From contig OZ024762.1 in assembly GCA_964016885.1 (NCBI GenBank), positions 24,552,001 to 24,616,000 of the forward strand: a stretch of DNA of 64,000 nucleotides, given 5' to 3'. Under the pieces are notes generated by a model, which saw only the letters and a list, made by a program, of their open reading frames with translations, made no database searches and was not told the origin of the DNA. The DNA is from Eledone cirrhosa. Lineage: Eukaryota. The stretch's first letter is position 1. Each line of letters begins with the position of its first letter. The position numbers and the translations under genes were made by a program. Of this stretch, positions 3,793-63,850 are shown in pieces.

Positions 3793-4043
3793 GCCTCTAC
3801 GACTCCAGGAGTTATTGGATCTTTATCCTTTTTTATATATATATATACAATATATAAATAAATGGAAACTATATTTATAAAACCATATTTATTTTATTAT
3901 ATATATTTCAAGGGCAACCAAGGCAAATTATGGTGCGCTTTCATCAGATAAAATACAGATTGGTTTTATAAATAAATATTGACATTCCCGGAAAAGACAA
4001 AATGTTTAAGCTTGTTGAATCCCAACAAATTAAATATAACCTC

Positions 4044-14532: not shown

Positions 14533-14872
14533 TCATCATTCATCATCATTTCATTTTACGTCCGCTTTTTCCCTGCTTGCAAGGGTGGGATGGGAACTGA
14601 TGCTGGCTTGATTTCTACAGCTGGATGCCCTTCCTAACACCAACCTCATTTACAGTGAGTGCTGGGTGCTTTTTCGCCGTGGCACCTCCACGACCACTTT
14701 GCAGTGGTATGATAGGAACCCCAGTCCCTATCACCTCATTTCTACAGCTGAGTAAACTGGAGCAATGTGAAATAAAGTGTCTTGCTCAAGGAAACAACAC
14801 ATCACCCGGTCTGAGAATTGAACTCACAACCTTTCGATTGCAAGGCCAATGCTCTAACCACTAAGCCATGTG
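14533..14872 (-). mobile_element. tRNA-derived SINE family B (CORE-like body, RTE-type tail ending in (ATG)n)
   Basis: Reverse strand: catggcttagtggttagagc...gagttcaattc...ccttgagcaagacacttt...ggaagggcatccagctgtag...atgatg. Near-identical to 60765 and 61834. Confidence 0.85.
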
Positions 14873-15237
14873 AATGTAAAATAAACAGGGATGAACTCAT
14901 GAATGCATACACACCCTCACGATCACAAGCATATGCACATATGATAGGCTTTTGCAGAGTTTCTGTCTACCAAATTTTACTCTAGTTCCACACTGTAAAC
15001 GTGGTTGGTTTTAGGAAGGGCATCCAGCTGTATAATACCCAGCCAAATTTACAGTCTTCATTGGAGCAAAGTGCAACACATGGCCAACCCTGGTCAGATT
15101 TGCCTCCCGCTGTGGACGACCCATCTAAGCCATGCAAGCATGGAAAAATGGACGTCAAACAATGAGGATGATGATGAAGACATTGACTAAATTAAGGTTA
15201 ATAAACAACTAAATATTTTATGTTATTATTTCACCAG

Positions 15238-16885: not shown

Positions 16886-17399
16886 CTTTTAAAGAAGCAT
16901 TTTTTGTAAATTTAGCATTTTATTTTAGAGTTTGGTTTGTTAGTAGTTTTTTTTTGTTAATTTTATTTTTTGTTATTTTTATTTTTTGTTATTTTTATTT
17001 TTTTGTTTTCCTTTTTCTTTTTGCACTTTTTTTTGTTTTTCATTGTTTCACTGGCTTTATATAAACTAAACAACCAAAATATGTTGGCTGCATAGTGTAT
17101 ATATATGTGTGTGGTGTGTATATATAAATACATATATCTATATCCATATATATATATATATAAATAGAAAAAATGAAACAAAATTTCATTTCCCACTCTT
17201 AGTATGGCTGTTACTTAAATATAAGTATGTACGTGTACATACATATATGTATACAGACGTACAGTAGTATGTATATATATATACGTACATGCACATATGG
17301 ATTCACCGAACATTTATTATAATGCTCGGTGTGTTTGTAAACAAACATCCCGTATTAAGCCGTAGTGTCCAGCAACCATCGTTGCTCGTTTGTTCAACA

Positions 17400-17468
17400 C
17401 TGACAAAGGAACGCTGTACTAGTTTCAAGCTTATTAGCTATCATCAGCAATGTATACCTTCCTGCCAG
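17400..17468 (-). ncRNA. Type I hammerhead ribozyme (inverted partner copy)
   Basis: Reverse complement reads attg CTGATGA tagctaataagctt GAAA CTAG TA cagc. TCATCAG is at 17441-17447. Confidence 0.72.
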
Positions 17469-17708
17469 ATTGTTGAACGTCTGAAAGTATGTACTTTCCT
17501 TATGCATATTAACGGCTGAGCAGCCTAATTTGCATATCCAGTGAGTTAATCGGACGGGCTCACCGAAAACGATAAACGGAAAAAAATGAAACAAAATTTT
17601 GTTTCATTTTTATCGTTTTCGGTGCACCCGGCCGATTAACCCACTCGATATGCAAATTGGGCTACTCAGCCGTTAATATGCATAAGATAAGTATATACGT
17701 TCAACAAT

Positions 17709-17777
17709 CTGGCAGGAAGGTATACGTTGCTGACGATAGCTAATAAGCTTGAAACTAGTACAGCCTTCCTTTGTCAG
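17709..17777 (+). ncRNA. Type I hammerhead ribozyme, minimal, with palindromic stem III
   Basis: ctggcaggaagg-tatac-gttg CTGACGA(17730-36) t-agct-aata-agct-t GAAA(17751-54) CTAG TA| cagccttcc-tt-tgtcag. Predicted cleavage after GUA at 17760. Confidence 0.75.
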
Positions 17778-18068
17778 TGTTGAACAAATGAGCAACGATG
17801 GTTGCTAAACACTATGGCTTAATACGGGATATTTGTTTACAAACACACCGAGCATTACAATAAATGTTCGGTGAATCCATACGTACATATATATATGTGT
17901 GCATGTATATATATATATACATACTACTGTACGTCTGTATGCATATATGTATGTACGCGTACATACTTATATATATATATATTGTTTCTTTTTATTTAAA
18001 AATGAATTATTAATTACTTTATATGTATGAATATATATATATATATGTGTGTATGTATATATATATAT

Positions 18069-30738: not shown

Positions 30739-30990
30739 ATATTTATTAAAATAACAGATTAAAGTTTATGCAAAGAATCGCTGCTTTCACCCTTAACGGG
30801 ATCTTCTGACACTAACAAAGTCAATCTGTAAACGCAGAAGTATCGTCTTCCTGTCTTCCTCCGGTTGCAACGTTTTTTGAAATATTCACTTCTGTGTTTA
30901 CAGATTGATTTTGTTAGTTTCAGAAGATCCCGTTAAGGGTGAAAGCAGCGATTCTTTGCTTAAACTTTAATCTGTTATTTTAATAAATAT
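30739..30990. mobile_element. Foldback element (~103-bp arms, 46-nt spacer) with HHR-like variant core
   Basis: Arms 30739-30841 and 30888-30990. Right arm reads agttt CAGAAGA t-ccc-gttaa-ggg-t GAAA gcag-cgattct-ttgc TT aaact. Confidence 0.55.
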
Positions 30991-31072
30991 TTGCTCTACG
31001 GTTCTTATATATTTGATATATATTTATCCTTATCGAGCCCTCTTTGGATTTTAGTCTTCAAATTTATTATTA

Positions 31073-31136
<64 letters not shown>

Positions 31137-38376: not shown

Positions 38377-38404
<28 letters not shown>

Positions 38405-38408
<4 letters not shown>

Positions 38409-38552
38409 ACAAATTTAATATAGAAATGGGTTTTACAGGTCTAGAACTGTTTCCTTTGAAGAAAATCAGTTCTAGTCCTGTAGAAGCCATTTCTATATTA
38501 AATTTGTTGTATACATTCTACTAATGTATTGAGTACCTTACTTACTGTGGTT
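38405..38552. mobile_element. Short foldback of the ctacaggactagaac / gtattgagtac repeat family
   Basis: Arms 38405-38449 and 38467-38513. Relatives at 3190-3290, 4580-4632, 46118-46290 and 61660-61793. Confidence 0.55.
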
Positions 38553-60309: not shown

Positions 60310-60745
60310 CACCCTGTCCCACCCCATCCACACCGCCTCCTTTAATGCAAAGTTATGTTGGTGCCACAACATCCAGGCCGAAACACGAGATCGTGTAGGT
60401 GTCACGACAAAAAAAACACAGTCCACGCTGTAACGTGACCGTGTAGGCAACACGGTAAAAACCTCCCACTGTAAATGTGGTTGGTGTTAGGAAGGGCATC
60501 CAGCTGTAGAAAACACGCCAGACAGTCCACGCTGTAATGTGGCCTTGTAGGCAACACGGTAAAAACCTCCCAGCCCCACACTGTAAATGTGGTTTGTGTT
60601 AGGAAGGGCATCCAGCCATAGAAAACCCGCCAGACAGTCCTATGCGAGCAAGACAACCACTCTTGCCTCAAGTGGGAAAACCCCCGTCCAAACCCATGCA
60701 AGCGTGGAACAGGGATGTTAAACGATGATGATGATGATGATGATA
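60310..60745 (+). mobile_element. RTE-tail-bearing repeat with internal duplication
   Basis: cactgtaaatgtggtt.gtgttaggaagggcatccagc twice, ending in (GAT)n. Relatives at 14880-15180, 20330-20530 and 58265-58450. Confidence 0.6.
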
Positions 60746-60764
60746 CACACACACATGTGTATAA

Positions 60765-61106
60765 TCATCATTTGATCATTTCATTTTACGTCCACTTTTC
60801 CCTGCTTGCAAGGGTGGGACAGGAACTGATTCTGGCTTAATTTCTACAGCTGGATGCCCTTCCTAACACCAACCTCATTTACAGTGAGTGCTGGGTGCTT
60901 TTTTCCCGTGGCACCTCCACGACCACTTTGCAGTGGAATGATAGGGACCCCAGTCCCTATCATCTCATTTCTACAGCTGAGTAAACTGGAGCAATGTGAA
61001 ATAAAGTGTCTTGCTCAAGGAAACAACACATCACCCGGTCCGAGAATTGAACTCACAACCTTTCGATTGCAAGGCCAATGCTCTAACCACTAAGCCATGT
61101 GCCTCC
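60765..61106 (-). mobile_element. SINE family B, full length
   Basis: Same sequence as 14533-14872. Confidence 0.87.
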
Positions 61107-61495: not shown

Positions 61496-61833
61496 CTACA
61501 TGCCCATATATGGACTGTATACTGTGGTTATTTCCGCTAGATTTTTGCCGTTCCAATACTGGTGGCTTAGTTCGGATCTAGCTGGCGAAACGGCTGGAGC
61601 TCAGATGTTGGGGTCCTGAATCTTGCCTGCTCATATATGTGAGTGCCGCATTCAATCATGGATAACCACAGTACGTGAAGTACTCAATATGTTAGTAGAG
61701 TGTATACAAAATTTAATAAAGAAATGGCTGCTACAGGACTAGAACGGATGATTTCTTACTAATGAAATGGTTCTAGTCCTGTAGATGCCATTTATATATG
61801 TTTATATTTATATATAACTATATATAAATAGTT

Positions 61834-62166
61834 GGCACATGGCTTAGTGGTTAGAGCATTGGCCTTACAATCGAAAGGTTGTGAGTTCAATTCTCAGACC
61901 GGGTGATGTGTTGTTTCCTTGAGCAAGACACTTTATTTCATATTGCTCCAGTTTACTCAGCTGTAGAAATGAGGTGATAGGGACTGGGGTCCCTATCATT
62001 CCACTGCAAAGTGGTCGTGGAGGTGCCACAGCAAAAAAGCACCCAGCACTCACTGTAAATGAGGTTGGTGTTAGGAAGGGCATCCAGCTGTAGAAATCAA
62101 GCCAGCATCAGTTCCCGTCCCACCCTTGCAAGCAGGGAAAAAGCGGACGTAAAATGAAATGATGAT
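61834..62166 (+). mobile_element. SINE family B, full length (inverted relative to 60765)
   Basis: ggcacatggcttagtggttagagc...ggacgtaaaatgaaatgatgat. Confidence 0.87.
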
Positions 62167-62457
62167 ATATGTATGTTTATATTTATATAAATATATATAT
62201 TATAATAGAATATAAAAGAAAAATCAACATAGATATATAGATATATGTGTTCAAATCGTAAGGGACCGGATTCTCTAAGGGGAAAAGAATACTAACTATA
62301 GACAATTGGGTTCACTTGTCTCAATTTAAGAAAATAAATACAAACCGGAATTGGGGTACCTACCAATCACCCAGACAACTTGTTGTAGAGGTAATGGATA
62401 TACATACACACACATATATATATTTATAGTTATGTAATAAACAACATAAGGCAATTA

Positions 62458-62514
62458 TTCCATTTACCAGTGGTTTCTTAAAAGCAAAAAATTTTGCTTT
62501 CAATCCTCAGAATG
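62458..62514 (-). ncRNA. Type I hammerhead ribozyme (identical inverted copy)
   Basis: Core lies in the left arm of a perfect 89-bp inverted repeat. Stem I is only 4 bp on this strand. Confidence 0.7.
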
Positions 62515-62531
62515 TAAACAGACCAGGATTT

Positions 62532-62591
62532 TTTCATTCTGAGGATTGAAAGCAAAATTTTTTGCTTTTAAGAAACCACTGGTAAATGGAA
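62532..62591 (+). ncRNA. Type I hammerhead ribozyme, canonical core
   Basis: tttcatt CTGAGGA(62539-45) ttgaaagcaaaa-tt-ttttgcttttaa GAAA(62572-75) CCACTGG TA| aatggaa. Stem I 7 bp, stem II ~10-12 bp, short stem III, GUA cleavage after 62584. Confidence 0.8.
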
Positions 62592-62683
62592 TAATTGCCT
62601 TATGTTGTTTATTACATAACTATTAAGCTCTGTTACCTACATAGAGCACTCTTTTTTCCTGGACTTTTCCGACGGAATTACTT

Positions 62684-62718
<35 letters not shown>

Positions 62719-63617
62719 CGATATACATATATATATGTATATAATTATAGATACATTTTGAGTTCCTAACTGTATACCTTTGATATAAATATATATATGA
62801 TTGTATGTATAGTATATTTGGTAATATACCTTATGTTTGATTAAAAACATTTAGAAGACCATTCGCTATCAGATTTAAAGTAGTGACTATGTCACTTACT
62901 TATTTTCGGCAAAGGTGGGGGGAGAGGCTGACAGTTTGTTTCTCGCTGTTTGGCATTTATCAAAACTGCACACTCCCCTACTTTTACCAACAATTATAGA
63001 AGCTGGATTCTTATAGAATTACAGTAATAATGAGGAGCTGATTACACATCGATTGCTGGTCCAATATATATATATATATATTAGAGAGTGACAATAGGAA
63101 TTGCAGGTTTTTGTGGAACTTTATTTCATATTATAATAGCTTCTATATCAATAAGCTTGGGTTGGATCATAAATATATGCAGACATATATTTATATTTAT
63201 ATGTAGTTAGTAATATATATAATTATATATTGAGCTATACATATAGAAGAGAGGTAATGGATATACACACTAATATATATATAGAACGATATACATATAT
63301 ATATGTATATAATTATAGATACATTTACAAATATATAGATAGATAAATATATATAGATACATAGAGAAATATATATATATATTTATTTATTATACATATA
63401 TATACACATATAAATATATATTAATATGGACAGATTTATATATAGATATCCATATATATATATATACACATATGTAGATGAATGTATATATATATATATA
63501 TGTCTTTATAGAACTATATACACATATATATAATTATACATAGATAGATATATTTATATAGATACATAGAGAAATATATATATTCAGTTATATAGATATA
63601 TATTTATACATTAAGTA

Positions 63618-63836
63618 TTTCTGTAGAAAAGAAGAGTGCTCAATGTATAGTACAGAGCTATTTCATTAGATAATAAACAATGCAATATAATTATTCCATT
63701 ACCATCTGGTGAAATAGTTATCTAACTATTTCATCTGATGAATAGAGCAGACAAATCTGTAAGGATTGTCTAGTTTTTTTGAAACCACTGGTATGGTAAT
63801 GGAATAATTATATTGTGTGGTTTATTATGTAATTAA
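63618..63836 (+). mobile_element. Decayed HHR-family foldback element
   Basis: gaaaagaagagtgctcaatgta end. taattattccattacca pairs with tggtaatggaataatta. Core CTGATGA(63735)...GAAA(63781)CCACTGGTA. Confidence 0.6.
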
Positions 63837-63850
63837 ATGTGTAGATAGGA

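Follow-up and report, generated by a model that had tools for sequence, protein, structure and literature searches.

A hammerhead-bearing palindrome in the genome of Eledone cirrhosa read as a truncated insertion of a Hydra-type Penelope-like element

A short palindrome carrying a hammerhead motif on each strand lies near the right end of a 64,000-nucleotide stretch of the Eledone cirrhosa genome (assembly GCA_964016885.1, contig OZ024762.1, positions 24,552,001 to 24,616,000; this whole stretch is the window, and positions refer to it unless a locus is named). We read it, with a probability of roughly 0.9, as a recent, doubly 5′-truncated insertion of the pLTR of a Hydra-type Penelope-like element (PLE), the twin hammerheads being a by-product of the mode of insertion and not a device. 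An inverted 5′-truncated copy, a tail at one end only, a (TA)n target and a hammerhead in the pLTR are all described for PLEs, the first two as standard anatomy (PMC8557442; PMC3846280).

The left arm (62426-62514, minus strand) and the right arm (62535-62623, plus strand) are reverse complements with 89/89 identity, 20 nt apart, as a sequence-only reading of this DNA had reported. The right arm is the sense pLTR up to its proximal end, and is followed by a one-sided tail of about 62-63 nt (62624-62686, plus strand) that in full-length copies runs on into the 5′ UTR and then the ORF. The left arm is an inverted, 5′-truncated pLTR copy without a tail, and its outer end is the fixed proximal end of the family. 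The 20 nt at the centre (62515-62534, plus strand) had been taken for a spacer; the length holds, and the sequence proves to belong to the element itself, to the part that precedes the right-arm hammerhead, with an exact copy in 16 of 30 family loci, including the one in the window. The true inversion junction of this copy is 62514/62515, asymmetric by 20 nt, and no identical match to it was found among the best 40 of 414 candidates scored. The right edge of the element, previously set at 62681, is corrected to 62685/62686, contigs leaving the element after 62685, and 188 raw reads (run X9) exit at the right-arm end into (TA)n. There is no ORF within the copy. The left flank (62387-62425), which is the target, terminates in a (CA)n/(TA)n run and matches an empty paralogous site at 63250-63282, and the right flank (62687-62758) is (TA)n followed by sequence common to that site. 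The empty site as a whole (63250-63326, plus strand), about 0.6 kb from the palindrome, has a short (TA)n run joining both flanks, with the element absent.

The right-arm motif (62532-62591, plus strand) has the core CUGAGGA at 62539, GAAA, stem III as ACCA-C-UGGU, and GUA; stem I has 7 bp, of which one is G-U, folding gives stem II 11 bp, and cleavage is predicted after 62584, so that the core, stem I and stem III are all as first described. In the left-arm motif (62458-62514, minus strand) the intact core is identical, at 62510, and stem I, cut short by the inversion point, is down to 4 contiguous pairs; the predicted cut is after 62465. The proposal of an intact hammerhead on both strands is therefore upheld for the cores, both motifs of the palindrome being found by a strict type I descriptor that finds none in 100 block-wise shuffles, but not for the minus-strand stem I, nor by Rfam, in which 62515-62625 matched no hammerhead family at E values up to 10. 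For the whole window there was likewise no hammerhead among the 150 of 353 Rfam matches listed, these being only microsatellite- or hairpin-driven miRNA matches below gathering scores. With a conserved core, a NUH triplet and three helices, we regard the window motif as a putative type I hammerhead, judging from the motif and from comparison by eye with a paper's supplement. Folded freely, the plus-strand motif does not form stem III, as expected of a helix with only 3 bp in the monomer; in a modelled dimer its palindromic pairing extends over 8 bp. Such stem III-paired dimers are the arrangement described for metazoan PLE hammerheads, with low activity in vitro (PMC4209133). In full-length elements the hammerhead probably cuts tandem transcripts, via a stem III dimer or with protein help, and in the stub at the window locus it is likely a passenger.

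Variation among copies was scored in 101 arms. The core is kept in 91 of these, and only N7, loop II with its closing pair, and the 3′ flank have variants above 10%; high-share differences in reads agree with the common variants in sparing the core. That the common variants avoid the core fits selection for a presumed ribozyme in active master copies. Per-base departure is 7/606 in the 5′ core and 28/2014 in the 3′ flank, no lower in the core, and at the level of copies selection on the core is therefore without support, the inserted copies appearing to decay neutrally.

The family is large and young. The right arm and tail give 1406 candidate matches in the 3.0-Gb genome, with all of the best 40 scored (40/40) at 99-100% identity, which bears out the suggestion of a young retroelement with a Penelope-like, pLTR-type hammerhead; a 26-mer of the family has 3960 exact matches (control 0). 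The sequence-only reading had gone on to propose a non-autonomous family, and here it is not supported, since the sequence belongs to the pLTR of an element that codes for a protein and has intact frames. At ORF-bearing loci the pLTR and tail lead through a short 5′ UTR to an ATG in 7 of 30 cases, about 220 nt after the predicted hammerhead cut, and these seven separate loci argue against a chimeric link between pLTR and ORF. One locus (L074) is 100% identical to window positions 62583-62685 and encodes a 711-aa frame, and 22 of 64 scored protein matches cover residues 1-711 with no stops. The order of the full unit is pLTR, tail, UTR, ORF, inner decayed hammerhead, microsatellite-rich stretch and terminal pLTR; in L082 the period from pLTR to pLTR is 4261 bp. 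The pLTR-ORF-pLTR arrangement is seen in L082-L085 and L087, and also as a tandem with tail sequence at both pLTRs in L089, a locus of the contig-1 sample outside the 70 regions classified below.

The inner decayed hammerhead lies about 1.1-1.4 kb upstream of the terminal pLTR in L081 (4481-4585) and other full-length copies, and aligned inner copies have G at the cleavage position in 14/14; the element may have grown through retention of an old pLTR. A spacer of 0.9-1.5 kb ahead of the terminal pLTR is described for Pen1_Av of Adineta vaga (PMC3846280). We also note that in L081 (1723-1825, the same copy as L074) an intact ORF is preceded by a 5′ end no more than 2 nt from the predicted hammerhead cut; this is a single case, and no enrichment of 5′ ends at the predicted cut was found among 11 ORF-start contexts (1/11, L074/L081).

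The protein has RT motifs DIVDFYP and YRDD and a C-terminal VVY..YVG nuclease region that reads as GIY-YIG, in L074 and in other copies. A single ORF with RT and GIY-YIG is the organisation of EN+ Penelope-like elements, and partial-tandem pLTRs, inverted 5′-truncated copies and a tail at one end, all traits of that group, are found as well. Within it, the Hydra clade is defined by RWK, DKT, CxCX5C and CxxC/CxH beside conserved E and N, with no CCHH (PMC8557442). The protein has RMRWK, SDKTK (DKG changed to DKT), the CxCX5C linker as CSCRKPDEC, CxxC as CSLC and CxH as CPH, and it lacks CCHH, there being zero cysteines between VVY and YVG; the canonical hammerhead and (TA)n insertion of the clade are both present. 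By these motifs, and by eye against a published supplement, the parent is probably a Hydra-type PLE. The clade length of <3 kb, a tendency and not a rule (PMC8557442), does not extend to the 4.26-kb unit described here, in which the ORF itself is normal in length and the surplus is non-coding sequence on the 3′ side, because the microsatellite-rich 3′ region holds the second, decayed hammerhead.

Neither Pfam nor a PDB sequence search gave a match for the 711-aa protein, and a large protein search gave 1292 homologues, the best of the 120 listed being 57% identical and none of the 120 informatively named. The nearest named family of the Hydra clade is Hydra-1_Obim from Octopus bimaculoides, as given in PMC8557442. 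It resembles the present family in having one ORF, with RT and then a C-terminal GIY-YIG and with the RWK, DKT, CxCX5C, CxxC and CxH motifs of the clade, and in its (TA)n target and its type I hammerhead with an ACCA-N-UGGU stem III. It differs in its stems I and II, and in protein sequence (by eye, about 57% identity in the first 42 residues and 69% in a 45-residue part of the RT core); it is listed there without a pLTR, whereas tandem and inverted pLTRs occur here, and the published PLE tail is 30-40 nt compared to about 62 nt here (PMC8557442). No name for the family was found in the literature searched; Dfam, Repbase and the O. vulgaris repeat library (PMC13282606) lay outside that scope, and the family may be catalogued already. 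Recently active Penelope families have been reported for O. vulgaris (PMC13282606).

Several patterns emerge from the anatomy of the copies. First, there are two fixed 3′ ends among the insertions, separated by about 62 nt, and many copies consist of one arm only. Secondly, in the best-matching 30 loci the inverted arm stops at one common base in 20 (window included) and carries a tail in 0/30, with centres that vary in length and sequence. Thirdly, the centres vary continuously, up to several kb; widely spaced matches are underlain by kilobase palindromes that hold pieces of the ORF, with outer ends identical to those of the short palindromes. A near-perfect palindrome of about 5 kb in L031 (396-5458) is centred within the ORF at 2962 and has a tail on the left arm only.

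The pairing of arms was examined in 70 regions of the contig-1 sample, drawn from the first 100 exact matches. Head-to-head pairs of terminal arms are present in 35 of the 70, with exactly one tail in 35/35 (20 left, 15 right), an outcome expected about 3 times in 10^11 if each end were chosen freely at even odds. Two regions labelled by the script as head-to-head with no tail (L042 and L138) were set aside, as their minus-strand match resembles the inner decayed hammerhead copy by coordinates and identity; the inner-copy filter is leaky, and the 'tandem n/n' and 'T/n' classes are mostly a terminal arm together with an inner decayed copy. The only convergent case in the 70 is L045 (436-869), in which a simple repeat separates two arms that point towards each other; both are tailed, and both have a small fold-back. 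Partnered arms also resemble one another more than chance pairing allows, agreeing at 124 of 140 diagnostic sites in the 28 of 35 pairs that were usable, against a random-pairing mean of 76.4 (maximum 102 in 10,000). They disagree at 16/140, with 5-7 differences in 79 bases in several of the pairs. Short pairs number 22 of the 35, and in 10 of these 22 both arms break at the same position within 1 nt. Of the 70 regions, 14 are labelled as lone arms ending at the proximal site, the fetched region containing no second arm; as such arms are common, the proximal site seems able to start copying alone.

The one-tail rule and the shared variants suggest that both arms are copied from one RNA, likely in a single event, although the shared variants could also reflect conversion between the arms after insertion. 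We lean, by a little, towards two primers on one RNA as the source of the inversion. The PLE endonuclease would nick both strands of a TA-rich target, and each nick would prime reverse transcription on the same uncut RNA; one primer would start at the distal site, with the tail included, and the other at the proximal site, without it, and both cDNAs would stop early and have their ends joined head to head. Whether the one-tail rule, the matched variants and the often symmetric centres record a coupled reaction, with one PLE protein complex priming from each target strand at a different site on the same RNA molecule, we put at even odds.

Two published systems bear on this. In vitro, the PLE protein of Poseidon PAc (Anolis carolinensis) is described as cutting and extending both strands of an AT-rich target from two RT start sites that flank the tail, with a hammerhead upstream of the start sites and with uncut RNA as the main template (PMC11167929). 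It belongs to another clade, and its ORF starts inside the hammerhead where the ATG here is about 220 nt past the predicted cut; in that account no strand is tied to a start site, whereas the genomic pairs here always have one of each. The Penelope insertions described in Adineta vaga have head-to-head inverted pLTRs, one of them tailed, and junction palindromes, but at low copy number (PMC3846280), compared to the present family, whose arms number in the thousands, lie in (TA)n and show no readable target duplication.

A single cDNA folding back on itself fits almost as well as the two-primer scheme, and we hold this route to be possible, with a chance of around one in three. A cDNA begun at the distal site would stop, fold at a short self-complementary stretch, copy itself and resolve at the proximal site, which accounts for identical arms, a single tail and symmetric centres; self-priming has been proposed for such junctions (PMC3846280), and several centres (L092, L093, L097) coincide with an 8-bp palindrome that lies 43 nt upstream of the core. 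Partnerless arms ending at the proximal site are common, however, copying in vitro takes place on both strands and from both start sites (PMC11167929), and the junction is asymmetric in 12 of the 22 short pairs, as it is in the window copy.

We think it improbable that the short palindrome is a non-autonomous element in its own right, transcribed and mobilised whole, whose twin ribozymes are a design that was selected. Short palindromes are frequent, at 22 of 35 head-to-head pairs, one centre is common to three sampled loci, and tail-primed copying of a palindromic master would also yield one tail and a fixed far end. Against this, the window junction has no identical match among the candidates compared above, and centres form a continuous range up to several kb. 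A transcript across the element is predicted to fold into a hairpin of -153.3 kcal/mol compared to -81.7 with the hammerhead enforced, a gap of about 72 kcal/mol. Each RNA strand holds only one sense hammerhead, and the hairpin would bury it; with cores on opposite strands there is no same-strand dimer of the kind described for PLE hammerheads (PMC4209133). Because its junction is unique in that comparison and its sequence comes from the pLTR of an element with intact protein-coding frames, the window copy looks like a one-off truncated insertion.

Other palindromes in the window had been grouped with this one as unrelated families converging on an inverted twin-ribozyme design. The element at 63.6 kb (63660-63838) is an older pLTR relative with the same stem III and post-cut sequence, in which 5 nt are duplicated at the cut site; identity to its own best relatives is 80-86%, and Hydra-like ORF pieces lie nearby in 2 of 20 loci. 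At 30.7 kb (30739-31075) there is an inverted pLTR pair with one tail, from a young second Hydra-like family that has the core CAGAAGA (U4A) in 20/20 loci, a stem III of 5 bp, and another Hydra-like ORF (35-47% identity) in 7/20 loci. The palindromes at 38.4 and 61.7 kb (38403-38513 and 61722-61793) are older and seemingly of one family; no intact motif was found in the window scan or in 20/20 related loci, the core being missing because these palindromes fold back inside the hammerhead, and four arms of other loci have it intact. At 17.2 kb (17289-17888) a nested palindrome of about 600 bp, from a young family, has a minimal type I hammerhead on both arms; this minimal hammerhead, with a 6-nt palindromic stem III, is present in 15/15 loci, and a parent ORF was not found in the loci examined. 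The grouping is not supported, in view of the relatedness at 63.6 kb, the ORF-bearing family at 30.7 kb, and the lack of a hammerhead in the window scan at 38.4 and 61.7 kb. An inverted truncated copy is a documented PLE insertion product (PMC8557442; PMC3846280), and a common insertion mechanism explains the resemblance of the window elements better than convergence does.

Further features are recorded here. On the minus strand, 3898-3955 holds another type I hammerhead-like motif with a stem I of 8 bp and an AT-only stem III. Segments at 61830-62150, 14616-15032 and 60467-60886 contain what we take to be a tRNA-like SINE and a repeat that often accompanies it, in several orientations. In L046 (6-2253 and 2263-3474), decayed LTR-retrotransposon-like pol sequence adjoins a PLE fragment of another lineage.

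The palindrome is very improbably an assembly artefact made from fold-back reads. The arms are perfectly identical, and among contigs and raw reads of the same species none spans the whole palindrome at the window locus; an artefact would mirror the tail and the flank, however, and neither is mirrored, while the flanks match the empty site 0.6 kb away. Both classes of 3′ end are present in the contigs and raw reads, and one palindromic centre of the family occurs in short-read contigs (run X1), although the contig runs may derive from the assembled sample itself.

A non-LTR retrozyme was also considered. The animal examples described (bioRxiv 10.64898/2026.07.22.740005) are short and non-coding, with a pLTR-related type I hammerhead, but are head-to-tail tandem repeats with a hammerhead in each unit; the window copy is head-to-head, has no fixed monomer, and derives from an ORF-linked parent. 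The inverted arms and TA flanks would suit a DNA transposon of the MITE or fold-back type, bounded by terminal inverted repeats and a TA target duplication. That reading is refuted by the link of the arm to a frame encoding RT and GIY-YIG, and is also contradicted by ends made asymmetric by the 62-63 nt tail and by the many one-armed copies; of all the explanations we give it the least credence.

The window locus is thus ordinary retrotransposon debris. The family has a modest value, as a Hydra-type PLE that has been active recently, has arms by the thousand as well as intact frames, and was overlooked here by Pfam and Rfam. Where palindromes bearing hammerheads are met in such genomes, PLE ends should be considered before a new ribozyme design is invoked. 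The formation of tandem and inverted repeats and of tails by PLEs is described as an open question in the field (PMC8557442), and the insertion statistics of this family bear on it. If the coupled reaction on one RNA is true, a family with 22 intact frames would be a ready in vitro system for the formation of inverted repeats and tails.
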